This document shows positions 6,301 to 50,145 of a stretch of DNA of 55,449 bases, one piece after another. The notes beneath the pieces are model-generated. The model was not told where the DNA came from. It saw only the letters and a program-made list of their open reading frames with translations, and made no database searches. The position numbers and the translations under genes were made by a program. Source of the stretch: an uncultured delta proteobacterium (GTDB taxonomy: Bacteria; Desulfobacterota; WTBG01; CAIYCZ01; CAIRTM01); NCBI GenBank assembly GCA_903911225.1, contig CAIWCT010000453.1:1-55449 (forward strand). Direction: 5' to 3'. Numbering within the stretch: the first letter of the stretch is position 1; the number at the start of each line of letters is the position of its first letter.

Positions 6301-6421
6301 ATTGTTAATGAGCGATAAAAACCATAAACAAAAGCTGCGAAAGGAGGTGGTCGGGACAGAAAGCCCTTAATCTGGTAGAAACCGAGTAAAGCTTAAACTA
6401 ATTAATATGGAGGTTTAACTT

Positions 6422-12380: not shown

Positions 12381-12396
12381 TGGCACACCGCTTGCA
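12381..12396 (+). promoter_or_regulatory. Sigma54 -24/-12 promoter
   Basis: TGGCAC-ACCGC-TTGCA. Confidence 0.88.
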
Positions 12397-12408
12397 AATA
12401 CAAATAGC

Positions 12409-12798
12409 ATGAAAAGAAAAATCGCCATTCCCCTGTTCGGCACACGCATTTCGCCGCATTTCACCTATGCCGACATGGCGCTACTGGTTGACATTGAAAA
12501 CGGCGAAGTAGCGCAGTCGCGGGAAATAGCACTGGGGCAGGCAGACGAGCTGCAGCGCATACAGTATCTTAAGTCCCTTGAGATCAACACGCTCATCTGC
12601 GGTGGCATATCAAATATTGCCGAGCGCATGCTTGCCGAACAAGCAATAGATGTCATCTCCTGGGTGACGGGAGAGGCCCGTGACGCGCTGGAGCTGTTTA
12701 TATGCAAACGGCTGACGTCGGGCGCCTGGCTGTGCCCCAAGCGGCATCGTTGCCGCAGCGGCCAGTCCAGAAACAAAAAACCAGTCACGTTTTCGTGA
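12409..12798 (+). CDS. NifB/NifX family protein
   Basis: KIAIPLFGTRISPHF, LICGGIS. Confidence 0.82.
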   Translation: MKRKIAIPLFGTRISPHFTYADMALLVDIENGEVAQSREIALGQADELQRIQYLKSLEINTLICGGISNIAERMLAEQAIDVISWVTGEARDALELFICKRLTSGAWLCPKRHRCRSGQSRNKKPVTFS

Positions 12799-21814: not shown

Positions 21815-21823
21815 AGGAGGTTT

Positions 21824-33710: not shown

Positions 33711-34477
33711 AGCCGGCAGTAAGCCTGTCTGCAGCGCTAGAGCTTGATCGCAACGCGCCGCTCGTTATCAGTATTGTCGGCGGCGGTGGAAAAACAACGG
33801 CCATGTTCATGCTTGCCCGGGAAATCAAAGCGCTCGGCAAAAAAGTTCTAGTCACCACGACAACCAATATCGGCGTTCCTGAACCGGGGCAATGTGATAT
33901 TTTTATGCTGGAAGGTTGCACCGATCCGGGGCAGCTTGCCGCCATACCTGCTGCAACCATCACCTGCCTTGGAGGCGGGCTTATCGAAGGAGAAATTTGC
34001 AAGGTCAAAAGCGTTGATCCGGCCTTTATCGACGAACTTTATGCGCAAAACCTTTTTGATTGCATTCTTGTTGAAGCAGACGGCGCCAAGCGCAAGCCCA
34101 TAAAAGCTCCGGCCGACTATGAGCCCGTCATTCCGACATCAACCACCCTGGTCATTGGCGTTATAGGTTTAGATTCTCTCGGGAAAGAAGTTTCTGAGGA
34201 AAACATTCACCGCTGCGCGCTTTTTTGTGCTTGCACCGGCAACAAGCCCGGTGAGCTTATCGACAGGGCAAGTATCATACAACTTATTCTTGCGGAAAAA
34301 GGTCTTTTTAAAGGCGCGCCTGCAGCAAGCCGGAAGGTGGTGCTGCTCAATAAAGCCGATACTGCAGAATTGAGGCTACATGCCGAGCAGATCGCACAGG
34401 AAATCCTTAGTTTGGCTGCGCCAGTGCATGGCTGTATTGTCGCATCATTACTGCAGGGCAACTATAAGATATTGTAG
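33707..34477 (+). CDS. yqeC: Selenium cofactor biosynthesis protein YqeC
   Basis: SIVGGGGKTT, VLVTTTT, VEADGAKRKPIKAPADYEPVIP. Confidence 0.9.
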   Translation: MKPAVSLSAALELDRNAPLVISIVGGGGKTTAMFMLAREIKALGKKVLVTTTTNIGVPEPGQCDIFMLEGCTDPGQLAAIPAATITCLGGGLIEGEICKVKSVDPAFIDELYAQNLFDCILVEADGAKRKPIKAPADYEPVIPTSTTLVIGVIGLDSLGKEVSEENIHRCALFCACTGNKPGELIDRASIIQLILAEKGLFKGAPAASRKVVLLNKADTAELRLHAEQIAQEILSLAAPVHGCIVASLLQGNYKIL

Positions 34478-34655
34478 TGGCAGGTTTCAAACCCAATATA
34501 TGTGAATTTAGTTCAGTATATTGCTTCCTCGCCCCCGCGAGGGGGAGAGGACTGAGGTGAGGGGGAATTTTATATCACCCCTCATCCCGACCTTCTCCCG
34601 CAAGGGGAGAAGGAGTTCTTAACTCACAATTATTGGGTTTGAAATCTGCCTCTAC
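34474..34655. repeat. Nested palindromic element: GTAG-family REP-like inverted ends enclosing a GGGGAGAGG/CCTTCTCCC hairpin repeat
   Basis: GTAGTGGCAGGTTTCAAACCCAATA ... TATTGGGTTTGAAATCTGCCTCTAC near-perfect inverted repeat. Confidence 0.75.
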
Positions 34656-34715
34656 TCAGATTGAATTGAACTTAAAGCTCTGTCATTTCGACCGCAGGGA
34701 GAAAGCCTAACAGGT

Positions 34716-35291
34716 ATGATTACCGGCATCATTCTGGCATCAGGCCTTTCCCGACGCATGGGCAGCGATAAGCTGTTGCTGCCGGTGGCCGGAATGCCGC
34801 TCGTGGAGTGCGTCATGCAGGCAGCCGATGCCTCGCAGCTTGATGACATTATCCTTGCTTATCAGAATCTAGCCGTGTGCGAACTCGCCGGGAAATATCG
34901 CATCAGGACAGTCCACAATCCCGATGCTGCACAGGGGCAAAGCGCTTCAGTAAAAGCAGGGGTTCAAGCAGCAGCGGCGGATACCCAGGCTTATATGTTT
35001 TTGACGGGCGATCAACCCCGGATTGATGCCGCGGCAATTAATTTACTTATTAATGCCTGGCGCACCCATAAGGAAAATATTATTATTCCGGTCTTCGGCG
35101 GCAGGCGCGGCAGCCCGGTTGTTTTCCCCGCTCTGCTTCGGGACAAGCTGCTTGATCTTGAAGGCGACACAGGCGGTCGGGCCGTCATCGAGCAATTTCC
35201 CGGCATGGTCTTCACTATAGATATGCCGTCGACCGATACCGGTCTTGATATTGACACCCCTGAAGACTATGAAGCCATGGCGAAGTCCTGA
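34716..35291 (+). CDS. mocA: Molybdenum cofactor cytidylyltransferase (MocA/YgfJ family)
   Basis: ILASGLSRRMGSDKLLL, GQSAS, GDQP, GDTGGR, DIDTPEDY. Confidence 0.85.
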   Translation: MITGIILASGLSRRMGSDKLLLPVAGMPLVECVMQAADASQLDDIILAYQNLAVCELAGKYRIRTVHNPDAAQGQSASVKAGVQAAAADTQAYMFLTGDQPRIDAAAINLLINAWRTHKENIIIPVFGGRRGSPVVFPALLRDKLLDLEGDTGGRAVIEQFPGMVFTIDMPSTDTGLDIDTPEDYEAMAKS

Positions 35292-35298
35292 ACTGATG

Positions 35299-35328
35299 AC
35301 AGCGGCTCAAATGAGCCGCTGTTTTTTT
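35299..35328 (+). terminator. Rho-independent terminator
   Basis: ACAGCGGCTC-AAAT-GAGCCGCTGT followed by a T run. Confidence 0.88.
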
Positions 35329-35544
35329 ATGAATACCATCATAGCTGCAGTGAGGTCGGTTGACAGGAGCGTCTCTTGGTGTTAGTAGTCAACAACGAAC
35401 CGCATGGCGGGTGGCTTGGATGCCCCTACAAGGGGAAGACAAGGGCATATAGTGCCAGGTTCGCTTCTGCCTTCACCGCCAAAGGCGGTGTTTTTAGGCA
35501 GACAACAAAAAAATTTTAGCGATCCCGTTCGAAAACAAAACGCA

Positions 35545-36966
35545 ATGAAAAAAGAAAAACCAGATTTCATTTCAAAAAAAGAGGCTGCCATACTCGATGA
35601 CCTTGATATCGGCATGGTGGCTGTTAATCACGACGGGCGGATTACCTTCTTGAATCGCGCTATGGAAACAATTCTTGGTCTGCCCGACGAGGATATTCAT
35701 GGCAGAGCGTGTTGCGAGGTCTTCGGCGATTCGATCTGCGACGGTGCCTGCTTGCTGCGGCAGACGATGAAAACCGGCAAATCCGTCATGAACAAGACTC
35801 TGAATGCAACAACTGCCGCAGGGGTGCGAATGCTTGTGAGTATCACGACAGCCCTGATGCGCAGCAGAAATGGGGCGGTTACGGGCTGCTATGCCACCAT
35901 TCGGGATTTAAGCATGGTCGGCGAAATGTACAGCATGCCCATGCAGTTTTTAGCTCTGGCCGAAAACATTCCCGACGCCGGGGCCATCGAAAAAATCCGC
36001 TGGGAAGCGGACCTCAAGTTCAATTTCCACGGCATCATAAGCCAAAGCAATGCAATGCGCCATATTTTTACCCTGCTGCCAAGGATCGCTGAAAGCGACA
36101 GCACGATACTGATCGAAGGTCCCAGCGGCTCGGGCAAAGAGTTGATCGCGCAGACTATTCACCGGTTGAGCCACCGGAAGCACAAGCCCATGATCACGGT
36201 CAACAGCGGCGCCCTGCCCGATACGCTGCTCGAGTCGGAGCTGTTCGGCTACAAAGCCGGCGCGTTTACCGATGCAAAAAAAGACAAGCTCGGCCGCATC
36301 GCTTTGGCCGAGGGCGGCACACTGTTTCTTGATGAAATCGGGGATATCTCCCCTGCTCTGCAGGTGAAGCTTCTCAGGTTTCTTCAGAACCGGGACTATG
36401 AGCCGCTCGGATCAACCGACCAGCTGCGGGCCGATGTACGTATCCTTGCCGCCACGCACCGCAATCTTAGCCAGCTGGTCAAGCAGGGAAAATTCCGGGA
36501 AGACCTGTATTACCGAATTAATGTTTATGCCGCAGCAGTGCCGCCCCTTGAGCAGCGCAAAGAAGATATTCCGTTGCTGGTTCGGCACTTTATCGACCAC
36601 TACAACCGGCTTCAGAAACGTGACATAAAGGGAATTGCTTCAGATGCGCTTAACCTGCTGCTTAGCTATGATTTTCCCGGCAATATACGGGAGCTGCAAA
36701 ATATTATCGAACGGGCCTTTATTCTCTGCGCCGGGCCCAATATCACTGCTGCTGATCTGCCCGAGGCCATCACGCGCGGAACTTCCGTGCAGGTTGTCCG
36801 CAATGACCGCACGCTTGCCGGCATGGAGGAAAAACGAATCCACGAAGCCCTGCGCCGCCACAGCGGCAATGCGGCAGCCGCCGCAGACGAGCTCGGCATT
36901 CATAAAACCACCCTCTGGCGCCGCATGAAGGCGCTGGGTATTTCTGCACAAAAAAATAACAGATAG
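35545..36966 (+). CDS. Second OrpR-like sigma54 activator (Cys-PAS, AAA+, Fis HTH)
   Basis: CCEVFGDSICDGAC, GPSGSGKE, GAFTDA, TTLWRRMK; start set to ATG 35545. Confidence 0.9.
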   Translation: MKKEKPDFISKKEAAILDDLDIGMVAVNHDGRITFLNRAMETILGLPDEDIHGRACCEVFGDSICDGACLLRQTMKTGKSVMNKTLNATTAAGVRMLVSITTALMRSRNGAVTGCYATIRDLSMVGEMYSMPMQFLALAENIPDAGAIEKIRWEADLKFNFHGIISQSNAMRHIFTLLPRIAESDSTILIEGPSGSGKELIAQTIHRLSHRKHKPMITVNSGALPDTLLESELFGYKAGAFTDAKKDKLGRIALAEGGTLFLDEIGDISPALQVKLLRFLQNRDYEPLGSTDQLRADVRILAATHRNLSQLVKQGKFREDLYYRINVYAAAVPPLEQRKEDIPLLVRHFIDHYNRLQKRDIKGIASDALNLLLSYDFPGNIRELQNIIERAFILCAGPNITAADLPEAITRGTSVQVVRNDRTLAGMEEKRIHEALRRHSGNAAAAADELGIHKTTLWRRMKALGISAQKNNR

Positions 36967-36970
36967 AAAA

Positions 36971-37015
36971 TTGCATTTTGCAATACCGTGAGGCTGTTTC
37001 TGTTGCGAAATGCAA
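36971..37015. promoter_or_regulatory. Tandem upstream activator sites
   Basis: TTGCA-TTT-TGCAA and TTGCG-AAA-TGCAA, 32 bp apart. Confidence 0.6.
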
Positions 37016-37104
37016 TTTAACCGCACGCTGCCCCCTGCCTGCTCAACCACAATAACAGTCCGGTTTTTCATCACTAAAACACAAGCCCGCACGTTTTTTT
37101 CTTT

Positions 37105-37120
37105 TGGCACATGGCTTGCT
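37105..37120 (+). promoter_or_regulatory. Sigma54 -24/-12 promoter
   Basis: TGGCAC-ATGGC-TTGCT. Confidence 0.88.
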
Positions 37121-37131
37121 ATATCAATTAG

Positions 37132-37215
37132 ACAGGTTAGTGCTCATAAACCTCCTTTTTATACAGGCCTTTCATCTCCTTATCTTGGCAGGGGTAAGGA
37201 GATGAAAGGTTTTTT
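37132..37215 (+). ncRNA. Candidate sigma54-dependent small RNA or attenuated leader with an anti-SD seed
   Basis: Starts just after the sigma54 promoter, contains TCATAAACCTCCTTT, ends in a 15-bp perfect stem plus T6. Confidence 0.5.
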
Positions 37216-37317
37216 ACAATTACGGAGCCGGCAGTTGAGCGCTTGCGCACTATTCAATTAACGAAAATTTGACGGTGGTTAAATTCTTTGTATCGGGACA
37301 ACACAGAAAGGGCGGCG

Positions 37318-37809
37318 ATGAAACAACAATACAAAAAATCAAAACTTCTGCTTCTGATCATTCTGGTTTGCAGCGCTTTTACCTGCGGGCGGGCGCAGGC
37401 GGAAATCTCCACAGACCATATTTTTCTGCTCTCACCCAACCATGAGGATGCCACCTATGACTATTACAGCTACACCCCGGCAGGGTCGGTGAAGGATGTA
37501 ACGTATTTTCTTGTGCTGTTCGGAGGCCTGCAGACAACGATCGAAACCCTGTCAGTCAAACTCAGCTCCTCGCCCGTGTTCCATTCCTTTACAGGATCCG
37601 TGACCTACAGCCTTTTCGCCGTTGGCTACCCTAATATTTATTGCGCCAAAACAGTGACCGCCACGAATGCGACCGTCGCCTCCAACTATATCAAGGCTGA
37701 TTTTTTGGTAAATTCCCAATACGGCATCGCCCTCATAGGGGCTGCCCTGCTTGGGAGGCATGATGTGTCCCCCGATGTGAAGATGTCGCTCAAAGTATCC
37801 GTCCAATAA
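37318..37809 (+). CDS. Exported hypothetical protein, beta-rich
   Basis: Signal peptide ending AQA; no family recognised. Confidence 0.7.
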   Translation: MKQQYKKSKLLLLIILVCSAFTCGRAQAEISTDHIFLLSPNHEDATYDYYSYTPAGSVKDVTYFLVLFGGLQTTIETLSVKLSSSPVFHSFTGSVTYSLFAVGYPNIYCAKTVTATNATVASNYIKADFLVNSQYGIALIGAALLGRHDVSPDVKMSLKVSVQ

Positions 37810-37869
37810 GCCACGGACAGCTTGGGCAAAAACAGGATCATGCACTTCTACCGGAATTTCGGCGCGCTT

Positions 37870-39870
37870 ATGAAGATTTGTTTAAAAATACCGGCATGGC
37901 TCACAGCCGCGGCAGTCGCCTGCAGTATCGGCGCCGCAGCAGCAGGCGAGACAGCACGTCCCATGGACAATTCTACCGGCCAGGTGTTTACGCTCGGTGA
38001 AGTGGTTGTCGAGGGTGAGCGGGACACGATCAGCAAAGTCACCACGGTGGATACCATAAAAAAGGAAACTATCGATCTGAACACGGCCACCAATGTGGCT
38101 GATGCTCTCAAATCGGTTCCCGGCGTCACGATGGCCATAGGATCAAGAAATGAAAAAATGTTGACGGTCAGGGGGTTCACGGCTCGCTATATACCGGTCT
38201 TTTATGACGGCATACCTGTTTCTATCCCCTATGACGGCTATGTCGATCTGGGCAAGCTTCCCACAGGACCTGTTTCCCAGATAACCCTCAGCAAGGGCAT
38301 AAGCTCCGCGCTCTATGGCTCCAATACCATGGGAGGGGTGCTCAATATCATTTCGCGCAAGCCGGAAAAAAAATTCGAGGCTGATTTTGACACGCAATGG
38401 AGCGAGGGGAGCCGCTGGGACACGAATGTCAATATTGGCTCGCGTCTGGGAAAATTCTATTTTATGGGAACCTATGGCTATACCGATCAGGACGCCTTTG
38501 TATTGTCTGAGCACCACCACAATGACCTGAATCAAAGCGGCCATTACCGGGCAAACTCTTATATTGACAACGAGAATACCTACAATTTCAAATTCGGCTT
38601 TCTGCCGGCTGACGGACAGGAATACGCAGTAGGATTCAACCGCGTGAAAGGTGGCTGGGGCCTGCCGCCGGAAGAAGGCACCATCGCGCCCAAGTACTGG
38701 CGGTTCACCGATTGGGAAAAAAGCACCTACTATTTTATCGGCGATACAAAGCTTGCCGATACGCTGCAGCTCAAGACCCGGCTCTACCGCGATGAAGCTT
38801 ACAATGAGCTCGATTCCTATGATGATGATACTTACACGATTCAGGACTCTCCTTCTTCATTTCACAGCACCTATGACGATCACACCGTCGGCGGCTCCGC
38901 CACGCTCAGCTCGACCTATTTTAACAACAATACCATCGGACTGTCTTTTCATCTCAAGGATGATGTCCACAAGGAGCAGGACGACTATGGGTACAAGTGG
39001 GAGCGCTTTGAAACAAAAACCTATTCCTACGGCCTTGAGGATGACATCAGGCTGACCGACAAACTGTCGCTTGTAGTCGGAGCAAGCTATGACAAGCAAG
39101 TGCCGTGGTATGCCAATGGCGGCCAGCTCAGACGCAATGAGGAGGCTTTCAATCCGCAGGCGGGCGTTAACTATGCCGCGGCTGAGAATACCATTCTTCA
39201 TGCGTCCGTCGGAAAAAAATCGCGCTTCCCGTCGCTCAAGGAGCTGTACTCCAACCTGCTCGGGACCAATATAGCCAACCCGAATCTTAAATCTGAACGC
39301 GCGCTCAACTATGAGGCGGGCATCGAGCAAAGGCTGCCGGGAAATACGACGCTCAAGTTCAATCTTTTTTATAATGATATAAGCGACTATATCGTCAGTC
39401 GCGAGATCAGCTTCAAGGTCAATCAGTATATCAATATCGGCAAAACAAGTTTCAAGGGTTTTGAAATAAACCTGCAATCCGGCTGTCTGCGCGACAATGA
39501 TTTTCAGATCCACTATACCTGGCTGCACGCCGAGGACCGCTCTCCGAACCGAACGAGCAATCATCTTGAATATCAGCCTAAACACAATCTGTATATCAGC
39601 GACCAGTATACGATCAACCGGTATCTGTCGGTTTTCTGCGCACTGACGCTCAACTCCGAGCGTTATTATCAGGATTCCGACGATTATATGAACTGGGACA
39701 AGGTGAGCGGTTTCTGCACCATGGATATGAAGCTGATTGCTAAATTGACAAAATATTTCACGCTGGAAGCCGGGGCGCGCAACCTTTTTGATGAGGACTA
39801 TTCCTATTCTCATGGCTTTCCGCAGGCAGGCCGCACCTTCTTTACCATTGTGAGGGGAAAATTGTGGTAG
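37870..39870 (+). CDS. TonB-dependent outer-membrane receptor
   Basis: Signal peptide, TonB box (LGEVVVEG), plug VRGF..YDGIP, SALYGSNTMGGVLNI, NPNLKSE, NLFDEDY...GRT; start uncertain. Confidence 0.93.
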   Translation: MKICLKIPAWLTAAAVACSIGAAAAGETARPMDNSTGQVFTLGEVVVEGERDTISKVTTVDTIKKETIDLNTATNVADALKSVPGVTMAIGSRNEKMLTVRGFTARYIPVFYDGIPVSIPYDGYVDLGKLPTGPVSQITLSKGISSALYGSNTMGGVLNIISRKPEKKFEADFDTQWSEGSRWDTNVNIGSRLGKFYFMGTYGYTDQDAFVLSEHHHNDLNQSGHYRANSYIDNENTYNFKFGFLPADGQEYAVGFNRVKGGWGLPPEEGTIAPKYWRFTDWEKSTYYFIGDTKLADTLQLKTRLYRDEAYNELDSYDDDTYTIQDSPSSFHSTYDDHTVGGSATLSSTYFNNNTIGLSFHLKDDVHKEQDDYGYKWERFETKTYSYGLEDDIRLTDKLSLVVGASYDKQVPWYANGGQLRRNEEAFNPQAGVNYAAAENTILHASVGKKSRFPSLKELYSNLLGTNIANPNLKSERALNYEAGIEQRLPGNTTLKFNLFYNDISDYIVSREISFKVNQYINIGKTSFKGFEINLQSGCLRDNDFQIHYTWLHAEDRSPNRTSNHLEYQPKHNLYISDQYTINRYLSVFCALTLNSERYYQDSDDYMNWDKVSGFCTMDMKLIAKLTKYFTLEAGARNLFDEDYSYSHGFPQAGRTFFTIVRGKLW

Positions 39871-40098
39871 GGGCGGCGGACAGGGCATGCGCAGAGAACA
39901 ACCCACTGCGCTCCATGCCGCCTGCCAGCTATTTGTGTTCTTTCTCCCAAACTATATGGGGCTGCCCCGGCCACATGTGACGCGGCCCCATATAGATAAA
40001 ATTCGGATATCTGCGCCGGTTCCGGGCGCTACTGCCCGGCTGTGCCTAACAGAGCCATAACCATTTAATCTATCGAGACAAAAAAAGGAGGATCACGC

Positions 40099-41007
40099 AT
40101 GAAAACAGGACTGAAAAAGATGGCATGGGCCTTAACGCTCAATGTGTTGTGCCTTACACTGCTATGCATGAACACAGGCTGCAAGCTTGCGCTCTGGCAG
40201 GGCGATCAGCAGGTCATAGTAACATTCAACGACAATACGACAGCTACGGTTAAACTAAAAGGCATGCTCACCACCGCCTATGATAATGTAACCGCCATCA
40301 AAATTTCCGCTATCGTCAAAAAGGCCCGGCTCGCCAGCACTTCCAAGCTCGAAAATGCGTATTTCAACTTTATAAACAGCGACGGCATCAATCTGGAAGA
40401 CGGTTTGACATCGGGCAAAAGCCTGCCCACCTGGGATGATATCCAAAATGGCTATATCTATGATAACGGCACCAATGGCGGGCTGTGCATCAAATGGGCC
40501 CCCGGCACCGCGCCCGGCGATGACAACGGCACTGCCTACAGCGTGAGCCTGATGGATAACGGCACGATCGCCATCCAGGAGAACAATGTCGCTCCCCCCA
40601 CCGACCCCTGGCAGGGCGCCGAGCAGGTTCAGGTGACCTTCGGCACCAAAACGGCTACCGTCAAGCTGAGCGATATCAATATCAGCACCTATCAAGGCAT
40701 TGATGGGGTACGGTTGTCCGATATCGTTAAGAAGGCAAATCTCGCAGCTGCCGCTAATGTTAAAAATTATTATTTTAATTTTATCGCAAGCGACGGCTTT
40801 GACATGTCGAAAAAGGCGATATCAAACCAAATGAGCCTGCCCACCTGGAGCGACATGCAAAAAGGCTATCTCTATGATTCAGGCTCAAGCAGCGGGCTGA
40901 CCATAAAGTGGGAAACGGGAACGCCGCCCGGCGATTTCGGGAGATTTTACAATTGCAAGCTCATGGATGGCGGCATCATTCAAATACTGGAGGATAATGT
41001 GCTGTAA
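40099..41007 (+). CDS. Lipoprotein with two tandem repeated domains
   Basis: Lipobox-like NTGC; duplicated WQG..VTF..TATVKL / YFNFI.SDG / LPTW.D.Q.GY.YD / LMD.G.I; RBS AAGGAGG. Confidence 0.8.
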   Translation: MKTGLKKMAWALTLNVLCLTLLCMNTGCKLALWQGDQQVIVTFNDNTTATVKLKGMLTTAYDNVTAIKISAIVKKARLASTSKLENAYFNFINSDGINLEDGLTSGKSLPTWDDIQNGYIYDNGTNGGLCIKWAPGTAPGDDNGTAYSVSLMDNGTIAIQENNVAPPTDPWQGAEQVQVTFGTKTATVKLSDINISTYQGIDGVRLSDIVKKANLAAAANVKNYYFNFIASDGFDMSKKAISNQMSLPTWSDMQKGYLYDSGSSSGLTIKWETGTPPGDFGRFYNCKLMDGGIIQILEDNVL

Positions 41008-41109
41008 GAGCACGGCAGAACAGAGAAAATTCATAACAGCAGGTGTCATCGCTGCTGCGTTGAAGCCGGAGTGGCAAACTCCGGCTTCGGCATGTTTCAG
41101 GAAGACAAC

Positions 41110-41985
41110 ATGAGCATGAGTGCACGGGCGGAAAAAACCATGGCAATGCTGATGCGTGCAATAGAGTTTGACTGTGAGAGCAGCGACGGGTTGTCGGTCG
41201 AACTGAACGCACCGCTCAGACGGGCGGCTTTTCATGTCCGGCGGCAGCATGGCATGCCACGGGCGGTCGCGCTGTCGCTGTTTGTACATGCCAGTATCGG
41301 TGTGGCGCTTTTTTTTCAGCTTGTGCCGCAGCAGTTTATGCGCATGCAGGGAAGCGGAAATGAGCAAAAATTATTGGAGGTTTTTTTGATCGCCGAGCCG
41401 GCCGGGGCATCAGGCGGCGCACCACGACTGGTGCAGGCAATTGCAGCCGCACCGGCTGCTGCGCCCGAACCGGTCGTCAAAGCGGAGCACAAGCCTGAGC
41501 CAATAAAAAAAACGCTCGCAGAATACAGCATGCACCGGAAAACAAAAGCCTTACCTCCTGAGGTACCTGTGCAGGCAGAAGAAGCCCCGGTAGGTAAAGC
41601 CGATGCTACGGCAGAGAGCCCGCAGCCCGGACAAGCCACGGGGTCACAGGATTCAGGCAACCAGACGGGAGCGGGTTCCGGGAGCGGGGCTCCCTATGAC
41701 ACAAGCTTCGGCCAGGCGGATGCGCCCCGGTTTTTAAACTATGTGCAGCCCAAATATCCGCTTGCAGCACGGCAGCAGGGACGAGAAGGAACCGTTGTTC
41801 TGCGGCTCACTATTGATGAACGCGGCAATCTGGTTCAGGTTGAGGTTGTTGCAAGCCCCTCCGACGGCTTTGCCCAATCAGCTGTCGAGGCGGTCAAGCT
41901 CTCAACATTTGCTCCGGCCCTGCGGGGCGGCAAAGCGGTTTCATCACGGGCCGTGCTACCCATGCGGTTTGCGTTGCGGCATTAA
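41110..41985 (+). CDS. tonB: Energy transducer TonB
   Basis: TM with SLFVH, Pro/Ala-rich linker, PKYPLAARQQGREGTV. Confidence 0.88.
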   Translation: MSMSARAEKTMAMLMRAIEFDCESSDGLSVELNAPLRRAAFHVRRQHGMPRAVALSLFVHASIGVALFFQLVPQQFMRMQGSGNEQKLLEVFLIAEPAGASGGAPRLVQAIAAAPAAAPEPVVKAEHKPEPIKKTLAEYSMHRKTKALPPEVPVQAEEAPVGKADATAESPQPGQATGSQDSGNQTGAGSGSGAPYDTSFGQADAPRFLNYVQPKYPLAARQQGREGTVVLRLTIDERGNLVQVEVVASPSDGFAQSAVEAVKLSTFAPALRGGKAVSSRAVLPMRFALRH

Positions 41986-42017
41986 TGCCGCCCTCATCGG
42001 CGTGATACCGGGGGCCG

Positions 42018-42076
42018 GCAGGGGAAGACCTGCGTGTCTGCCCGGAACAAGGGCGCACACACAGGTGCGCCCCTAC
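42018..42076. repeat. GTAG-family REP-like doublet
   Basis: GCAGGGGAAGACCTGCGTGTCTGCCC ... GGGCGCACACACAGGTGCGCCCCTAC. Confidence 0.65.
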
Positions 42077-42135
42077 GAGATATCAATACCGGCGGACGGC
42101 TATTTTACGCAATAGGAACAAATTTAAACGGTGGA

Positions 42136-42327
42136 ATGATGGACATACAAGAGTTTAAGGGGCGGCTGAAAAAGATAGCGGCACATAAACAGTATCGAAT
42201 TTCAAGTAAAGACAGAGAGGCTGCAAAAATTGCACTTGATATTTTAAGGGAGCTGGAAAAATTGCAGCCCCTGATTACTGAGGATTTTGAAAAAACAGAA
42301 ACCATGTCCTGCACAACCGGAATATAG
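42136..42327 (+). CDS. Small hypothetical helical protein (63 aa)
   Basis: AT-rich, charged amphipathic ORF filling the gap between tonB and fmdE. Confidence 0.5.
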   Translation: MMDIQEFKGRLKKIAAHKQYRISSKDREAAKIALDILRELEKLQPLITEDFEKTETMSCTTGI

Positions 42328-42402
42328 CATGGAATTCCTGAGTGGCAATTATAGAGCGGATTTATCAATAAATTATTATTTTGTGAAGGGAGCAAGCGTC
42401 TA

Positions 42403-42945
42403 ATGAGGTCATTTGAAAAAGATATGGAAGCAGCGGCCGCCTATCACGGCCACATCTGTTCGGGAATCGTCCTGGGAGTGCGCATGGCGCGGCTGGGCTC
42501 GCAGCTTTTGGGAATTGAGGATCCTCTCAACTACCGCGACCTTGTCGTATATATCGAGGTCGACCGGTGCGCAACCGATGCCATTTATGCGGTTACGGGC
42601 TGCACCATGGGCCGCAGACGGCTGAAGTGGCTCAATTACGGCAAGCTCGCTGCAACCTTTGTCGATCTTGCAACAGACAAAGCAGTGCGGCTTGCGGTCA
42701 TTGCCGAACACTTTCCGCCCGAGGACAGCGATCTTATGAAATTCTGGGAGACAATTCCAGATGAAGAGATGTTCAAAATACAGCAGATTGTCAAAATAGT
42801 GCCGCCCGAAGACCGGCCGGGCAAGCCGCTGCGTCGGGTAACCTGTCAGGGCTGCGGCGAATGGGTGATGGACGGCAGGGATGTTACCGTCGAGGGCCGC
42901 ACATTGTGCCGCGCCTGCGCTGGCGATGCTTACGCTGTACGGTAA
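42403..42945 (+). CDS. fmdE: FmdE family protein with C-terminal zinc finger
   Basis: YHGHICSG, CATDA, TGCTMG, YGKLAATF, CQGCGE..CRAC. Confidence 0.9.
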   Translation: MRSFEKDMEAAAAYHGHICSGIVLGVRMARLGSQLLGIEDPLNYRDLVVYIEVDRCATDAIYAVTGCTMGRRRLKWLNYGKLAATFVDLATDKAVRLAVIAEHFPPEDSDLMKFWETIPDEEMFKIQQIVKIVPPEDRPGKPLRRVTCQGCGEWVMDGRDVTVEGRTLCRACAGDAYAVR

Positions 42946-42955
42946 GGAGAAAATT

Positions 42956-43726
42956 ATGTGGGAGCTGTATGACGCGCTTATCGATCTGGTGCCTGAAGAC
43001 GCGACAGTAGCCGAATGCCTTGTGGGGTACAACTGGACGCTCGTGCGCTCCCTTGCCACGGGCGTTGCGCTCACGCCGCCCAAAGAAGGTTGCAGTAAGC
43101 GCTCTATCGGCCCCATTGCGGGCATGCCCGTGCGGGCGCTTGCGAAAAAAATAAAATCCTGGAACAGCCTTGAGGCAACGCTCGGGCTTGCTGCCATAAA
43201 TTCGGTGCTGAATACGCCTGGCCAGGTCGAGCGGCTGAGCGGCATACCGCTGTCGCAGCATCACCAGATGAGCGCTTTTGCCCGGTTTAAAAACGAAGTA
43301 CGGGGCAGGCGTGTTGCGGTGATTGGCCACTTCCCCGATCTGGAGCAGATCACCAGCATGTGCGAGCTGTCAATTCTGGAGCGCAAGCCGCATGGCGGTG
43401 ATTATCCCGATCCGGCCTGTGAATACATATTGGCACAGCAGGACTATGTTTTCATGACCGCGACGACCATCATAAATAAAACCCTGCCGCGGCTGCTGGA
43501 GCTGAGCAGTCGCGCGGTGAAGGTGCTGGTGGGGCCGAGCACGCCACTGACTGCCCGGCTGCATGATTTTGGCATCGATGTGCTGGCAGGCATGGCGGTT
43601 GATGATGAGGCAGCGTTCTGGCGCACGGTGCGCGAGGCAGGCTCACTTGAAATATTTGAAAATGGAGGCCATATGGTTGAAATTAGAAATAAGCAGATAC
43701 GTACAGGTCATGATGCAGCAGCCTGA
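42956..43726 (+). CDS. DUF364 family protein (second paralog)
   Basis: MWELYD, SWNSLEATLGLAAINS, VIGHFP, NKTLPRLL, VGPSTP. Confidence 0.87.
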   Translation: MWELYDALIDLVPEDATVAECLVGYNWTLVRSLATGVALTPPKEGCSKRSIGPIAGMPVRALAKKIKSWNSLEATLGLAAINSVLNTPGQVERLSGIPLSQHHQMSAFARFKNEVRGRRVAVIGHFPDLEQITSMCELSILERKPHGGDYPDPACEYILAQQDYVFMTATTIINKTLPRLLELSSRAVKVLVGPSTPLTARLHDFGIDVLAGMAVDDEAAFWRTVREAGSLEIFENGGHMVEIRNKQIRTGHDAAA

Positions 43727-44747
43727 GCATAGCAGCCGAATGGCCCGGCCCGGATTAAGAGTCATTATCATCGGCCTCGGAGCTGCGGCGGCCTTCTTCC
43801 TGTCGCTGCCCCTGGGCAGATATCATATACCCCTGTCGGATGTCGCGGCAGCGCTTTCGGCTGCGATCTCTCCCGGTGTTGAGCTTATTCCCGATGCCGT
43901 GCAAACCGTGCTGTTCAATATACGGCTGCCGAGGATACTGACCGGCATGCTCGTGGGCGCGGTTCTGTCGGCCTCGGGAGCGGTATATCAGGGCATGTTC
44001 CGCAACCCCCTGGTATCGCCCGACATACTGGGCGCTTCAGCCGGCGCCGGCTTCGGCGCTGCATTTGCCATATGGTGCTCGTGGGGCATAGCCGGCATTC
44101 AGGTTTCAGCCTTTATTTGCGGCCTTACCGCAGTGCTTTCCGCCTGGGGCCTCTCCACGCGGATGCGCCATGAACCCATGCTGGCCCTGGTGCTTTCCGG
44201 AATTCTTATCGGCACCCTGTTCTCCGCAGGCACGGCAGCTGTGAAATATATCGCCGATCCTCTTGACAAGCTCCCCGCCATAACCTTCTGGCTCATGGGA
44301 AGCCTGGCAGCCAGCACCCGGCGCGATGCGCTTATTCTTGCGGCTGCGGCTGCGGCAGGCCTTGTGCCGCTTCTGGCCTTGCGCTGGCGCCTTAATGTGC
44401 TATCGCTGGGTGATGAAGAAGCGCAGGCCCTGGGCCTTGAAACCGGAAAGCTTCGCTTTGGCGTGATTATCTGCGCTACGCTTATGACAACGGTGTCGGT
44501 TTCGATCGGTGGCATGATCGGCTGGGTCGGGCTGATAGTGCCCCATCTGGCGCGCATGATCGTTGGGCCCAACTACGGCGTATTGCTGCCGGCCTCGGCC
44601 CTGTTGGGCGGGGCCTACCTGCTTGTTGTTGACGATCTTGCACGAATGGTCGCGGCGGTTGAAACGCCCCTGGGAATACTGACCGCCCTTATCGGCGTGC
44701 CGTTTTTTCTTTGTCTGCTGAAATACAATACGCGTGACTGGCAATGA
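43710..44747 (+). CDS. Type II (FecCD/MolB-like) ABC permease
   Basis: IRLPR, QGMFRNPLVSPDILG, KYIADP..LPAITFWLMGS, IGWVGLIVPH. Confidence 0.9.
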   Translation: MMQQPEHSSRMARPGLRVIIIGLGAAAAFFLSLPLGRYHIPLSDVAAALSAAISPGVELIPDAVQTVLFNIRLPRILTGMLVGAVLSASGAVYQGMFRNPLVSPDILGASAGAGFGAAFAIWCSWGIAGIQVSAFICGLTAVLSAWGLSTRMRHEPMLALVLSGILIGTLFSAGTAAVKYIADPLDKLPAITFWLMGSLAASTRRDALILAAAAAAGLVPLLALRWRLNVLSLGDEEAQALGLETGKLRFGVIICATLMTTVSVSIGGMIGWVGLIVPHLARMIVGPNYGVLLPASALLGGAYLLVVDDLARMVAAVETPLGILTALIGVPFFLCLLKYNTRDWQ

Positions 44748-45571
44748 AGCTCGAACTTCGGGATATCTGCTGCGGCTATGACACATCTGATGTGGTACAA
44801 GGCGTCACTCTGTCCATCGGGCCAGGGGATATTGCCTGCCTGCTCGGGCCTAACGGTTCCGGCAAGACGACGCTTTTCAAGGCCATGCTTGGCCTGATGC
44901 CGCTGCATAAGGGATCGGTTCTGCTGGACGGGCAGGACATACGGCGCTGGGACCGTCGCGATATCGCGCAAAAGCTCGGGTATATCCCCCAGCATCAAAT
45001 GCGCCCCTTTCCTTTCACCGTGTTTGACATGGTGCTCATGGGCCGCACGTCCCATATCGGGGCATGCTCATCCCCTGGCCGCAGCGACCGCATGGCGGCC
45101 ATGGAGGCCCTCGCCGCCCTTCATATGCAGCATTTGGAAAAACGGATATTCACCGAGCTTTCAGGCGGAGAGCGCCAGCTGGTGCTTATTGCCCGTGCCC
45201 TTGCCCAGCAGCCCGGCATTCTCATTATGGATGAGCCCACGGCCAGCCTTGATTTCGGCAACCAGCTTTTGGTGCTGGATCATATCCGCGAGCTTGCCCA
45301 CGGCGGTCTGTCGGTCATCATGAGCACCCACCTGCCCAATCATGCGTTTTTATTCGGCACGCGGGTGCTGCTGCTCAAGAAGGGGCATATCCTGAGCGCC
45401 GGAACGCCCGAGGAAACCGTGAACAGGGAGAATATGCGCTCTTTGTACAATGTCGATGTCGAAATCGCACAGATGCAGCTGCAGGACAGCCGTGAGATCA
45501 GGGTATGCATACCACTTTCACACTGTTCCTGCAGCCAGCGAAGAAACAAACAAAGCCAAAAGGAGAAATAA
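44744..45571 (+). CDS. Type II ABC transporter ATP-binding protein
   Basis: GPNGSGKT, LSGGERQ, MDEPTASLDFGNQ, STH. Confidence 0.92.
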   Translation: MKLELRDICCGYDTSDVVQGVTLSIGPGDIACLLGPNGSGKTTLFKAMLGLMPLHKGSVLLDGQDIRRWDRRDIAQKLGYIPQHQMRPFPFTVFDMVLMGRTSHIGACSSPGRSDRMAAMEALAALHMQHLEKRIFTELSGGERQLVLIARALAQQPGILIMDEPTASLDFGNQLLVLDHIRELAHGGLSVIMSTHLPNHAFLFGTRVLLLKKGHILSAGTPEETVNRENMRSLYNVDVEIAQMQLQDSREIRVCIPLSHCSCSQRRNKQSQKEK

Positions 45572-46653
45572 TGAGCAGAAAAAAAATTGTCCGCAGCGCA
45601 GTATCGCTTGTTCTCATGACCTGTTTTTATATGGGGGCAGCCGATCCGCTTTGTGCCGCAACCAGGCCCGGTGAGCGCACCGTGACCGATCAGGCAGGCC
45701 GCAGCGTGGTGGTGCCCGTGCAGGTCAAAAAAATTCACGGCACGTCTCCCGTGGCAACGATACTGATCTATACGCTCTGCCCCGATCTGCTCGCAGGCTG
45801 GAACAATGAGCTGCGTCCCGGTGAAAGAGAATTTATTCCGGAGCCGTACCGCAGCCTGCCGAATCTTGGCGGGTGGTTCGGCAAAACCACGGGCAGCATG
45901 GAAGAGCTGATGAAGGCGCGGCCCGATATCATCGTTTCCGCCGGCTTCCACGGTGATGCCGACAAGGAGCTTGCCGAGCGCATACAGGCGCAGGTCAATA
46001 TACCTGTTGTCATGTCCGACGGATCGCTTGACGGGTTGGAAAAAGCCTACCGGTTTTTAGGCGACCTCACGGGCCGGCAAAAGCAGGCAGCCATCCTTGC
46101 CGATTACTGCCGGGACACGCTGTCCCGCATCGATACGGCCATGAAGGGCCTTCCGGATGACCGCCATACCCGCATCTATTATGCCGAGGGCGCTGCGGGG
46201 CTTGAAACCGAGCCGGCAGGCTCCGCCCATACCGACCTGCTGTCGAGGGTGGGCGGCCGCAATGTTGCGCAGGTGCCCTCGCGCGGCGGCATCGGCATGA
46301 CGCCCGTGTCCATGGAGCAGGTGCTTGCCTGGAATCCTGACGCTCTGCTCGTGTGGAACCGCAGCCAGGGCGGGGCCTATGACACTATCATGACCGATCC
46401 GCTGTGGGCGCAACTGCAGGCGATTAAAAAACGTCGCGTCTATGAAATACCCGCCGCGCCCTTTAACTGGTTTGACCGGCCGCCGTCGGTGAACCGCCTT
46501 ATCGGGCTGGTTTGGCTTTCCCGGCTCCTTCATCCCGAGAAATTTAACTGCGACATAAAGGCTGAGGTGCAACGTTTCTGCAAACTTTTTTATCATATAG
46601 AGCTGACAGACGCGCAGGTAAAAGCGCTTCTTGAGCGCGCTGGTGGCGCCTGA
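45571..46653 (+). CDS. Class III periplasmic substrate-binding protein
   Basis: Signal peptide, VTDQAGRSV, VSMEQVLAWNPD, PFNWFDRPPSVNR. Confidence 0.9.
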   Translation: MSRKKIVRSAVSLVLMTCFYMGAADPLCAATRPGERTVTDQAGRSVVVPVQVKKIHGTSPVATILIYTLCPDLLAGWNNELRPGEREFIPEPYRSLPNLGGWFGKTTGSMEELMKARPDIIVSAGFHGDADKELAERIQAQVNIPVVMSDGSLDGLEKAYRFLGDLTGRQKQAAILADYCRDTLSRIDTAMKGLPDDRHTRIYYAEGAAGLETEPAGSAHTDLLSRVGGRNVAQVPSRGGIGMTPVSMEQVLAWNPDALLVWNRSQGGAYDTIMTDPLWAQLQAIKKRRVYEIPAAPFNWFDRPPSVNRLIGLVWLSRLLHPEKFNCDIKAEVQRFCKLFYHIELTDAQVKALLERAGGA

Positions 46654-46654
46654 G

Positions 46655-47593
46655 ATGAAAAAAATAATTCCACATCCAGCCACGCGGTCTCAGGGCGCGA
46701 GCACCGCGCTCCTACACTCTGAAGGAATTTCTCCAGGCAAGTGGTGCGACAGCAGCGTGCTTGAAAAGCTCTGGCAGGCCGAGCGGCAGCAGTCGCTGTA
46801 CGCCCGGCAGCATCCTGAGCGCTCGGGGCCCGGTTGGTGGAGCAGCCGCTCCGAAAGCTATACCCGGCGCACTGGCGGCGAGCGCGGCAAGCGGCGGCAG
46901 GAGAAAGTCATAGAACTGCTTGAACAGGCCCGCTTCATTAATCAGCGGGCCGAGGTGCTTGATATCGGCTGCGGCCCGGGCAATGTCGCCCTGCCGGTGG
47001 CGCGGCGGGTGAAAAAAGTGGTGGCCCTTGACCCGTCAGCGGACATGCTTGAAATAGTGAACAAACGCGCCGCCGCCGAAGGAATAAAGAATATCGAAAC
47101 AGTACAGATGCGCTGGGAAGACGCCGATCTTGACAAACTGGGCTGGCGTGGCCGCTTTAGGCTTGCCATTGCCTCCATGACGCCGGGCATACATGACGCT
47201 GTCACGCTGCGGAAAATGAACGAAGCTTCGAACTGCGGGTGCTATTACAGCGGATTCACCCAGCGAAGAGATGCTGCACAAGAAGACCTCTGGCGGCTTT
47301 TCTATAATGAACCCATGCCGCCCCTACCCTCTGATGTGTTTTGTGTTTTTCACCTGCTCCATGCATGGGGCTATTGCCCGTCAGTGGCATTAAGCAGGGA
47401 AAGCTCGCGGAGCCAGTATGCCATTGTCGACGCGGCACAGGAATTGGGCCTGCTGATGATTCCCTATATCGAGCAGACGGCAGAGTCTCAAGAAAAAATA
47501 GAACAGTATGTCCGCTCCGCAGTCCGCAACGGAAAATTTACTCATGAGCGCTCTTTTGTGGAAGCACGAATGCTCTGGCCGGTGAAACATTGA
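46655..47593 (+). CDS. Class I SAM-dependent methyltransferase
   Basis: VLDIGCGPG, ALDPSADML, IASMTP. Confidence 0.87.
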   Translation: MKKIIPHPATRSQGASTALLHSEGISPGKWCDSSVLEKLWQAERQQSLYARQHPERSGPGWWSSRSESYTRRTGGERGKRRQEKVIELLEQARFINQRAEVLDIGCGPGNVALPVARRVKKVVALDPSADMLEIVNKRAAAEGIKNIETVQMRWEDADLDKLGWRGRFRLAIASMTPGIHDAVTLRKMNEASNCGCYYSGFTQRRDAAQEDLWRLFYNEPMPPLPSDVFCVFHLLHAWGYCPSVALSRESSRSQYAIVDAAQELGLLMIPYIEQTAESQEKIEQYVRSAVRNGKFTHERSFVEARMLWPVKH

Positions 47594-48629: not shown

Positions 48630-49799
48630 ATGAACCGCATTAAACAAATGCGTTTAGCAAAAGGGTTCTCTCTTGAAGCCCTCGCAAAGGCAATGGAGGG
48701 AGCGGTCACGAAACAGGCGCTTTCAAAGTACGAAAAGGGGCTGGCAAAACCAACTGCAACAGTGGCAGTTCGCCTTGCTGCAGCTCTTGGTGTTAAAACC
48801 TTGCAATTATGGGAAGAGCCTGCTGTGACCGTAGAGTTTGTCGCCTACCGGAGGCTTTCTCGTCTTGGGAAAAAAGAACAGGTCCGCATTGAAGCATTAA
48901 CGACAAAAACACTGGAAGACCGGTGCCGTTTGCAGGGCAAGCTGGGGCTCGAGAGCTCTTTTGAGCAAATCATTTCGCACTACCCGATTTATAAGATTGA
49001 AGAGGCAGAGCATGCGGCTGCCGGTATGCGGAAACAGTGGAATTTGGGGGTAGATGCTATTCATGATTTAACCGGTATTTTGGAAGATCGTCTTATTCAT
49101 GTTCTTGAGCTTGACGCGCAAAGAGAATTTGACGGTATTTCCGCTATAGCAAAAAATAAAAGCGGACGAATAATCGCCGGAGCTGTCACATCGCGCAAGG
49201 TAGTTGCCGGCGAACGGCAGCGTATGAACCTTGCCCATGAACTGGGTCACCTTGTTTTAAAGCCGACAAAGGGATGCGATGAAGAGAAAGCCGCCTTTAG
49301 ATTCGCAGGAGCTTTTTTGCTGCCGGAAGAATCTCTTAAAAGAGAAATAGGGGAGCGAAGGAGTAATATTCAGCTTGCGGAATTACTTGCCTTAAAAAGA
49401 AGATTTAAAGTCAGCATACAGGCTGTTTTATACCGTATGCTCGATTTAGATGTCATTTCCGAATCGTTATATAAGCAGTGGGCAATCACAATAAGCCAGC
49501 AACGCTGGCGCAAACAGGAGCCGGAATCTATAACGCCTGAAAAGTCTGATTGGCTTAATCGTATGCTTTCACGTGCGCTGGCTGAAGGCATTATTACTAC
49601 AGAAGAAGCAGAAAATATGTCTGGCAGCATTCAACTTGAAGATTTGCCTGCACCTACAAAACGCGCGGAGTTTTTACGCTTGCCACTTGAAGAACGCCGC
49701 AAACTCCTTAAGGCCCAGGCTGAGCATTTACATAAATATTATGAAAGCTTACGTGACGAATTGGATCTAGAAACCAGCGAGGGGTTAGAAGATGACTAA
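48630..49799 (+). CDS. XRE HTH plus ImmA/IrrE metallopeptidase with an extra C-terminal tail
   Basis: RIKQMRLAKGFSLEALA..VTKQALSKYE; AHELGH (HEXXH); E..A..FA..FLLP. Confidence 0.9.
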   Translation: MNRIKQMRLAKGFSLEALAKAMEGAVTKQALSKYEKGLAKPTATVAVRLAAALGVKTLQLWEEPAVTVEFVAYRRLSRLGKKEQVRIEALTTKTLEDRCRLQGKLGLESSFEQIISHYPIYKIEEAEHAAAGMRKQWNLGVDAIHDLTGILEDRLIHVLELDAQREFDGISAIAKNKSGRIIAGAVTSRKVVAGERQRMNLAHELGHLVLKPTKGCDEEKAAFRFAGAFLLPEESLKREIGERRSNIQLAELLALKRRFKVSIQAVLYRMLDLDVISESLYKQWAITISQQRWRKQEPESITPEKSDWLNRMLSRALAEGIITTEEAENMSGSIQLEDLPAPTKRAEFLRLPLEERRKLLKAQAEHLHKYYESLRDELDLETSEGLEDD

Positions 49800-50145
49800 T
49801 AGTCCTAAGAGGGGGGAAGTTTGGTTTGTCGATTTTAATCCGACCAAGGGCAAAGAAATACATAAAATAAGGCCCGCTGTGGTAATCAGCTCAGATTATA
49901 TAGGCAAACTGCCATTGAAGCTGGTTATTCCTATCACTGAATGGCAGGAAGCTTTTAAAGAGAATATTTGGCATGTACAATTAATACCGTCTGCAGAAAA
50001 CGGCCTAAAAAAAGCTTCTGCTGTCGATGCGTTGCAGACCCGCAGTGTTGATGTCCTCCGTTTTAAAAACAAAATTGGTTCAATCAAAGACGTACAGCTA
50101 TTGGATATTTTGCAGGCGTTGGCGGCTGTAGTTGAATTGGCGTAA
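49792..50145 (+). CDS. PemK/MazF family endoribonuclease toxin
   Basis: KRGEVWFVDFNPTKGKEIHKIRPAVVIS, NGL, QTRSVD. Confidence 0.92.
   Translation: MTNSPKRGEVWFVDFNPTKGKEIHKIRPAVVISSDYIGKLPLKLVIPITEWQEAFKENIWHVQLIPSAENGLKKASAVDALQTRSVDVLRFKNKIGSIKDVQLLDILQALAAVVELA

Follow-up and report, generated by a model that had tools for sequence, protein, structure and literature searches.

Examination of contig CAIWCT010000453.1, a stretch of 55,449 nucleotides (nt) from the metagenome-assembled genome (MAG) GCA_903911225.1 of an uncultured delta proteobacterium (hereafter the window), revealed a compact intergenic unit between the gene of a sigma-54-dependent activator, here EBP2, and an operon coding for an uptake system. 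The unit consists of two palindromes, a sigma-54 promoter and an intrinsic terminator (Table 1). Promoter and terminator define a likely transcript of about 85 nt in which a segment complementary to Shine-Dalgarno (SD) sequences, hereafter the anti-SD segment, would be exposed. The role of this predicted RNA is the subject of the present analysis.

Table 1. Position of the features at the EBP2 locus, of the candidate pairing sites in the window and of the related f75 RNA family.
Feature	Position	Strand	Remarks
Activator gene EBP2	35404-36966	+	PAS, sigma-54 AAA+ and HTH_8 domains (Pfam); OrpR-like
Palindromes TTGCATTTTGCAA and TTGCGAAATGCAA	36971-36983; 37003-37015		TTGCA-N3-TGCAA; putative activator sites
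Sigma-54 promoter TGGCACATGGCTTGCT	37105-37120	+	GG 37106-37107, GC 37118-37119; all 11 TGGCAC-N5-TTGCW positions matched
Predicted transcript, about 85 nt	37131-37215	+	start inferred from promoter geometry; single-stranded 5' part 37131-37164, then terminator hairpin
Anti-RBS (ribosome-binding site) segment TCATAAACCTCCTTT	37144-37158	+	unpaired in centroid; core ACCTCCTTT 37150-37158
Intrinsic terminator	37165-37215	+	15-nt perfect inverted repeat 37168-37182/37195-37209, loop GGCA, T6 37210-37215
Uptake operon	37318-47593	+	co-oriented with the RNA; Pfam
Candidate target	21813-21827	+	DUF364 stop codon, then SD and ATG of EFR1-family flavodoxin/ferredoxin gene 21824-22663
9-nt complement GGAGGTTTA	6409-6417	+	RBS of xdh-like FAD subunit gene at 6422
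f75 small RNA copies (alignment A3, n = 11)	L246:1524-1650; L247-L251; L253-L257	- (L246)	

The sigma-54 promoter lies 139 nt 3' of the stop codon of EBP2. Copies of the perfect consensus are found twice in the window and six times in the 4.86-Mb genome, and the motif alone is not significant, at least three matches with one mismatch or fewer being present in 69 of 100 shuffles of the window. It is the setting of this promoter, and not the motif itself, that carries significance. The two palindromes, whose starts are 32 nt apart, lie about 95-130 nt upstream of it. Of the 108 sigma-54-like motifs of the genome, only two are preceded by a palindrome of this type at a distance of up to 220 nt, and the pair occurs only at 37105. 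The gene for sigma-54, rpoN, was found on contig C228.

Folding of the region gave a terminator stem of 20-22 pairs (37167-37210 with 20 pairs in the scan call) and a hairpin of about -31 kcal/mol, the strongest located downstream of any of the 108 sigma-54-like motifs and also the first terminator past the EBP2 stop codon. The RNA as a whole folds at about -34.7 kcal/mol (z about -4.9), a value reached by none of 200 shuffles, and some 36 unpaired nt separate promoter and hairpin, the 5' part being open in the centroid structure. An earlier sequence-only reading of the window had described a sigma-54 promoter, a spacing of about 85 nt, a strong terminator and a coding sequence roughly 100 bp further on, and all of these elements are present; the ATG at 37318 lies 102 nt past the T run. 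A second copy of the RNA region was not found in the genome. Rfam returned no match at gathering score in the whole window; when the threshold was relaxed to E = 10, the matches in 36900-37400 were all to miRNA models, which the hairpin merely resembles in shape.

A by-eye comparison of patterns in the PAS domain of EBP2 revealed the arrangement C103-x8-C112-x3-C116, with E105 two positions past the first cysteine, and a GAFTDA loop. According to the description of its sensor, OrpR of Desulfovibrio vulgaris carries C52, C61 and C65 and, at position 54, an acidic residue, and removal of the PAS domain renders it constitutive (PMC8359166); it is entered with GAFTDA in the table of Kazakov et al. 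(PMC4641369). Since the cysteine triad, the acidic residue and the GAFTDA loop all agree with OrpR, the description of this second sensor of the window as OrpR-like holds for the sensor itself. It does not extend to the DNA site and the target: the OrpR operator is GGGCGYRTTTTGCGCCC, so the palindromes adjacent to EBP2 are of another type, and the unit adjoining EBP2 comprises the small RNA and the uptake operon, not orp operons. Met48, at about 35545, is the probable true start of EBP2; alignments with homologues begin no earlier than residue 47-63, and a terminator-like hairpin (35474-35490) followed by a T run lies within the N-terminal extension of the open reading frame (ORF).

A first activator with the same OrpR-type features is encoded at 10890-12260; a sigma-54 promoter and then a Nitro_FeMo-Co gene come after it, an arrangement shared by most relatives of this activator family. 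In 75 of 160 related activator loci a sigma-54 motif was found at a distance of up to 450 nt, in most cases some 25 nt ahead of a gene of the Nitro_FeMo-Co type. In the window (12381-12411), only 12 nt separate the end of the first sigma-54 promoter from the ATG of the Nitro_FeMo-Co (Orp-like) gene, so that its mRNA would have little or no leader; in the related loci the Nitro_FeMo-Co-type gene begins about 25 nt past the promoter.

Downstream of the terminator, the operon codes in order for a 163-amino acid signal-peptide (lipoprotein-like) protein, a TonB-dependent receptor, an unknown protein, TonB, FmdE, DUF364, a FecCD permease, an ABC ATPase, a periplasmic binding protein and a methyltransferase. 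From their domains, these genes are assigned to an uptake system of the metal-chelate type.

The core of the anti-RBS segment, nine of its 15 nt, is identical to the 16S rRNA 3' tail of two genomes of the same genus and of two other genomes of the class, which served for comparison because no 16S rRNA gene was found in this MAG. As these nine nt equal the anti-SD tail of the ribosome, the seed fits every strong SD. Read on the minus strand, 37124-37158 gives a textbook SD and ATG followed by seven codons (MSTNLSN, 37147 down to 37124) and a stop, which is probably a mirror effect of the seed and not a gene. Hfq had no match in this genome (85.5% complete) and exceeded the cut-off in none of 42 genomes of the class; CsrA and ProQ were not found either. 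In such a lineage, long direct pairing would be expected.

The same design recurs in the phylum. The pattern searched was a sigma-54 promoter followed after 15-45 nt by an anti-SD word. With CCTCCTT, it is present in three of the 42 class genomes, namely this one and the orthologous pair G038/G032. With the longer word ACCTCCTTT, it is present in six of 401 phylum genomes (five of the 400 others), while the reversed control gave none and the order-swapped control one in 401; about 0.002 matches per genome are expected from the word frequencies of this genome. The matches are not the antisense of real RBSs, the opposite-strand ORFs having two to eight codons. One of the five, in genome G116 (L241), was set aside as chance, since it lies inside an 831-amino acid histidine-kinase ORF. 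With the same finder, a terminator was called within 140 nt in three of six independent other lineages, against a background in this genome of 10 of 108 sigma-54-like motifs with a terminator within 120 nt. The recurrence of sigma-54 promoter, ACCUCCUUU and terminator is thus statistically supported.

Two of these loci resemble the EBP2 unit closely in design. In genome G046 (L242:1501-1600, plus strand) the sigma-54 promoter is followed by ACCTCCTTT and an 8-bp GC hairpin with T6; an orthologue of this element was found in none of five genomes of its family. Genome G294 has, after the gene of a PAS-AAA-HTH activator that shares 36% identity with EBP2, the promoter, the anti-SD segment, a hairpin with U8 and a TolC-like gene in this order. 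The G038/G032 pair (L237:1005-1120 and L238:1435-1549, both minus strand) has a sigma-54 promoter, the anti-SD motifs CUCCUCCUUUC and AA(C/U)CUCCUUUU, a 12-bp hairpin with U4-5 and then a 96-amino acid ORF that belongs to no Pfam family. In the neighbourhood are ORFs resembling PilZ and a gene resembling aldehyde:ferredoxin oxidoreductase, both named by eye. Six loci with such analogous RNAs gave no Rfam match at gathering score.

The G294 element belongs to a family of RNAs matched in 8 of 61 genomes of the taxonomic family f75. Over 11 aligned copies, the stretch TTGGCAT(T/A)ACCT(C/T)CTTT is nearly invariant and lies in the loop of a 6-bp hairpin, and the terminator shows changes on both sides in 7 of 17 predicted pairs. 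The first copy always stands between an activator and an outer-membrane (TolC-like) gene and is sigma-54-driven. The second copies have no sigma-54 motif, and in three of the four the genes downstream are convergent, so that these copies stand alone. This family, absent from Rfam, is a real, conserved, multi-copy small RNA (sRNA) family with covariation. The RNA of the window shares with it the phylum and the succession of PAS-AAA-HTH activator, sigma-54 promoter, about 35 nt, ACCUCCUUUU, terminator, about 100 nt and outer-membrane gene. It differs in that the f75 seed occupies the loop of a conserved 6-bp hairpin, whereas the window seed has at most a possible 5-bp A-U stem, seen by eye and not in the folds, and in that f75 genomes have two or more copies against one here, the activators being 36% identical.

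Sigma-54-dependent sRNAs next to activators are already known, and so is the pyrimidine-rich seed that occludes an SD. Qrr (LuxO) and GlmY (GlrR) are sigma-54-dependent short base-pairing sRNAs; RsaE/RoxS carry C-rich seeds in Hfq-independent systems, where SD occlusion is brought about by a pyrimidine-rich seed; and CJnc230 of Campylobacter is reported to be RpoN-dependent (PMC11187230). In D. vulgaris Hildenborough, Dv_sRNA2 lies beside the activator DVU0679 and other non-coding RNAs lie 3' of activators (PMC3333781), and the sigma-54 regulome of D. vulgaris places four non-coding RNAs beside the activators DVU0679, DVU0653, DVU2359 and DVU1419 (PMC4641369). As described there, these cases have in common with the window an sRNA gene that lies right 3' of the gene of its own sigma-54 activator and is the local target of that activator. 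Their activators are mostly two-component response regulators, in contrast to the one-component OrpR-type PAS sensor EBP2, and the passages on them make no mention of an anti-SD seed.

In Pseudomonas, crcZ is also produced from the cbrB transcript (PMC5113210), and nrsZ is an RpoN-dependent sRNA in the 3' region of the activator gene ntrC (PMC4253122). From the accounts in these sources, both loci combine an activator gene, a binding site, an RpoN promoter of the TGGCAC-N5-TTGCW type and an sRNA in the activator 3' region, as the EBP2 locus does; the position of the window hairpin as first terminator after the activator gene likewise recalls crcZ made from the cbrB transcript. On the same accounts, CrcZ is a sponge for the Hfq/Crc proteins and NrsZ is processed, and both are longer, whereas the window RNA would be a minimal seed plus terminator.

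The reading that we favour, though only with about even confidence, is that the window RNA is a functional sigma-54-dependent sRNA whose terminator also gates the operon. What the sequence shows directly is the set of elements with its spacing, the fold, the complementary stretches and the repeated occurrence of the design; the transcript itself, an action in trans and the targets are inferred from these. The minimal seed-plus-terminator form, the lack of an evident antiterminator, the retention of the module with its activator, the recurrent design and the sigma-54 precedents argue for a trans-acting sRNA. According to this model, the OrpR-type sensor EBP2, when active, would bind both palindromes and open the sigma-54 promoter. 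Transcription from about 37131 would mostly stop at the T6 after the 20-22-bp hairpin and yield the RNA of about 85 nt, whose unpaired 5' part would present AAACCUCCUUUUU, a copy of the 16S anti-SD with A/U flanks. With no Hfq in the lineage, this 5' part would pair directly with strong RBSs and block initiation, and its longest unbroken partner would be the stretch from RBS to start codon of the EFR1-like gene 21824. The terminator would also end the activator mRNA and limit sigma-54 read-through into the TonB-dependent uptake operon, so that RNA and operon would be two outputs of one promoter.

Several observations weigh against this reading. A terminator before the next ORF was called in none of the 75 related activator loci with a sigma-54 motif; the finder used there is crude, yet it calls the window's own terminator. 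The f75 covariance model R1 gave 8.0 bits on 37122-37229 (E = 1.2, 5th of 16), level with random matches, and by this model the window RNA is analogous to f75 in design, not a detectable member. An alignable homologue of the RNA was found neither in the genome nor in 40 relatives. The seed is generic and its top-energy matches are functionally mixed, and there is no RNA run among the 13 runs listed for the locus. In G046, a mere 58 nt or so separate the same design from the point where a TonB-dependent receptor gene is likely to start, which again resembles a leader. No plus-strand sigma-70-like site was found between the terminator (37216) and 37318, the eight such sites in 34000-40000 being all on the minus strand. 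Finally, in the orthologous loci of genomes G022 and G034 and of metagenome contig L070, a leader of about 180-190 nt without an obvious terminator runs straight into the lipoprotein gene. This direct drive, as judged from the orthologous sequences, argues more than anything else for the operon as the ancestral client of the promoter.

The last three points lead to a second explanation, which we regard as a real but lesser possibility: the sigma-54 promoter would be the operon promoter and the hairpin a leader terminator (attenuator or governor) that is bypassed conditionally or partially, the short RNA being a by-product and its anti-SD acting in cis at most. The operon may rely on read-through, which fits a leader, because no sigma-70-like site follows the terminator. 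The leader up to 37318 is 187 nt in total, close to the roughly 180 nt of the G022 equivalent, and in the minimum free energy structure of the full leader the anti-SD is paired with the RBS of the 37318 gene. That cis pairing, however, makes up only 0.2% of the ensemble and is absent from the centroid, and the duplex energy of the RNA with the same RBS is average (rank 7,538 of 16,830). An antiterminator is not evident either: no intrinsic one is seen because no upstream segment, in sequence or folds, complements the pyrimidine-rich 5' arm of the terminator, while the 36 nt before the hairpin are too little for a ligand sensor. With no mutually exclusive pairing evident and no Rfam cis-regulatory match, the region does not show the features of a riboswitch or attenuator, and the analogous f75 RNAs include stand-alone copies. 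A protein-mediated antitermination at the 37165-37215 hairpin may nevertheless occur.

The nearest EBP2 orthologues, in G022 and G034, are 38-40% identical in the sensor, and the lipoprotein gene of their loci is a distant homologue (26-28%) of that of the window. The EBP2 homologue of L070 is 58% identical overall, the best identity in the metagenome scan with the activator as query, and it stands in a G022-like locus with a leader near-identical to that of G022; the genome-contig scan gave relatives at 46-53% identity only, and the same scan with the 163-amino acid protein gave no match. In G022, G034 and L070 the same palindrome pair with its 32-nt spacing and a sigma-54 promoter follow the orthologous activator. 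The folded leaders of G022 and G034 contain no terminator and nothing like the hairpin of the window. The proposal that the second sensor acts mainly through the RNA finds no support in G022, G034 and L070, where the promoter leads straight to the lipoprotein gene. Between G022 and G034 the leader (L032, L033) is conserved; it is GC-rich and structured, with no Rfam match, and may represent an unrecognised cis-regulatory RNA. That of G034 is longer and has an extra insert of about 200 nt made of repeat-like GC-rich palindromes.

A DNA search with 36940-37330 in the 40 relatives gave a 36-nt match (E = 0.0027) as its best result, which was rejected on inspection as chance. Closer relatives of the region, 85-93% alike, were found in metagenomes, with the listed base differences ending before the RNA. 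A lake-metagenome DNA contig spans 36758-37826 with 71 differences and no gaps. A second contig, of 4.8 kb, aligns over 36601-37238 with 92 differences, a 2-nt deletion at 37133 and a T run shorter by one T; in it, 295 unrelated letters replace 37239-37345 and the alignment resumes inside the gene. Judging from these alignments, the promoter-to-terminator block travels with the activator gene and the spacer before the operon is replaceable, which speaks against the explanation as a leader, as one relative keeps the module but with a wholly different spacer before the gene.

The nearest orthologues of the lipoprotein are those of G002 (77%), a paralogue in the same genome (67%) and G004 (60%), whose upstream regions are of the sigma-70 type and different. 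A descent of the terminator 3' arm from the sigma-70 promoter region of the G002 lipoprotein gene was considered and rejected, 23 of 300 shuffles reaching the alignment score. The paralogous and orthologous lipoprotein loci G000:C51:17198-17686, L030 and L031 have in common a conserved upstream region that is rich in AT and carries a promoter of the TTGACG type; where the activator would stand, they have a signal-peptide gene in divergent orientation. Two further paralogues, on C276 and C383, have long leaders with no Rfam match. The nine paralogue and orthologue loci as a whole gave no Rfam match at gathering score.

The explanations as sRNA and as leader are not exclusive. The original sRNA interpretation is partly supported: the sigma-54/terminator unit with its exposed anti-SD and the recurring layout speak for it; a separate operon promoter was not seen, and the proposed target is a lead.

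The favoured sRNA reading includes a more specific case, which we consider doubtful: the main job of the RNA would be to block translation of the 21824 gene, and more weakly of the xdh-like 6422, thereby cross-wiring the second OrpR-like sensor into the cluster of the first. The 15-nt antisense match on which it is based is real. Exact copies of the 15-mer AAAGGAGGTTTATGA are found in the window at two places, 21813-21827 on the plus strand and 37144-37158 on the minus strand, where shuffles give an expectation of 0.05, and the shorter match proposed at the xdh RBS is confirmed with 9 nt. The product of gene 21824 scores 75.4 bits against a cut-off of 75 for NCBIfam EFR1, and the start region of the gene is weakly structured.

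A genome-wide comparison was made with RNAduplex and by unbroken Watson-Crick pairing over 16,830 candidate starts, 235 of them within the window. By unbroken length, gene 21824 came first with 15 nt over its SD and AUG, followed by three starts with 14 nt and four with 12 nt. By duplex energy it ranked only 57th, at -26.2 kcal/mol (best -35.1, mean -14.4), and one of the three 14-nt matches, a TetR-type ORF unrelated to the cluster, was among the strongest by energy at -30.1 kcal/mol. About 0.8 window sites are expected in the top 57 by energy, and the prior for a top unbroken match in the window is about 1.4%; as a group, the window sites are not enriched in pairing (Mann-Whitney p = 0.18). 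As the sequence-only reading cautioned, SD-plus-ATG sequences are of low complexity; 9 of the 15 nt are the generic SD/anti-SD pair. Under an RBS-aware null, a second site with the same 15-mer exists for 105 of the 1,272 GGAGG-type sites, and for seven of the 1,272 such a partner lies within 40 kb. Whether the match exceeds chance thus depends on the yardstick, unbroken length or energy, and the match was found after the fact. Gene 21824 is best treated as a lead only.

Orthologues of gene 21824 in three other members of the genus (G003, G002, G001; 76-90% complete) keep TAAAGGAGG and ATGA. In the spacer between SD and ATG (21821-21823; L258, L259, L260), this genome has TTT, where G003 has CCCCC, G002 CTT and G001 CGC, and the TTT that gives unbroken pairing is therefore found only here among the four genus members compared. 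In these three incomplete genomes, neither an orthologue of EBP2 nor a counterpart of the RNA region was found. From these sequences, the TTT spacer is compatible with co-adaptation, as a single case. The GGAGG-ATG spacing of gene 21824 is only 3 nt, likewise in two of the three orthologues.

It may also be that there is nothing regulatory in the RNA, the hairpin being the terminator of EBP2, the promoter inactive or leaking through and both the anti-SD and the 15-nt match due to chance. The location of the hairpin as first good terminator past the EBP2 stop codon, the roughly 4-6 perfect sigma-54 motifs per genome expected by chance and the lack of conservation of the intergenic DNA in the 40 relatives agree with this view. 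It is nonetheless improbable, for palindrome pair, promoter and activator are kept as a set in G022 and L070, the promoter with ACCTCCTTT is enriched (five of 400 other genomes against one of 401 in the control), a terminator follows the pattern more commonly than background, and the module is kept in diverged metagenome relatives. That the transcript encodes a small peptide is scarcely credible: both candidate frames are open (a 21-codon hydrophobic ORF rich in Leu, Ile and Phe from GTG 37140 to TGA 37205, and a 19-codon ORF from ATG 37202 to 37261), but a usable SD is lacking before the GTG, the ATG follows its GGAG with zero spacing and is inside the terminator stem, the hydrophobicity follows from the CU-rich anti-SD and a 21-codon open frame is expected in about one third of random frames, so that these ORFs, like the minus-strand ORF of seven codons, were set aside as too short or as having no usable SD spacing.

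A broader proposal, which goes beyond the favoured sRNA reading and which we hold to be unlikely, is that sigma-54 sRNAs with exact ACCUCCUUU form a recurrent class in the phylum, of partly independent origins, acting as ribosome mimics that silence mRNAs with a strong SD and placed as gates ahead of outer-membrane transport operons (TonB-dependent receptors, TolC-like proteins), and that in this genome the RNA and the RBS spacer of gene 21824, in the cluster run by the first sensor, have in addition become co-adapted, linking the two OrpR-type redox sensors post-transcriptionally.

Elsewhere in the window, an HTH/IrrE-type (Peptidase_M78) gene followed by a MazF/PemK-like toxin gene (48630-50145) and a regulator with WYL/WCX domains (53015-54037) were found; they are unrelated to the RNA.

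If real, the RNA of the EBP2 locus would be a minimal sRNA, made of a seed and a terminator, governed by a sigma-54 activator that senses redox state, in a freshwater lineage not yet cultured in which no Hfq, ProQ or CsrA was detected. It would also show how an RBS can be occluded by a seed that copies the anti-SD of the ribosome itself. The locus could serve as a simple case for testing whether a single sigma-54 promoter supplies both the RNA and, via read-through, the uptake operon of the metal-chelate type. The claim of gene 21824 as target would matter only if confirmed by compensatory mutation. The f75 family, conserved, multi-copy, covarying and not in Rfam, and the recurrence of the design may outweigh the window RNA in importance, as together they give a concrete pattern by which sRNAs can be sought in a phylum that has received little study.

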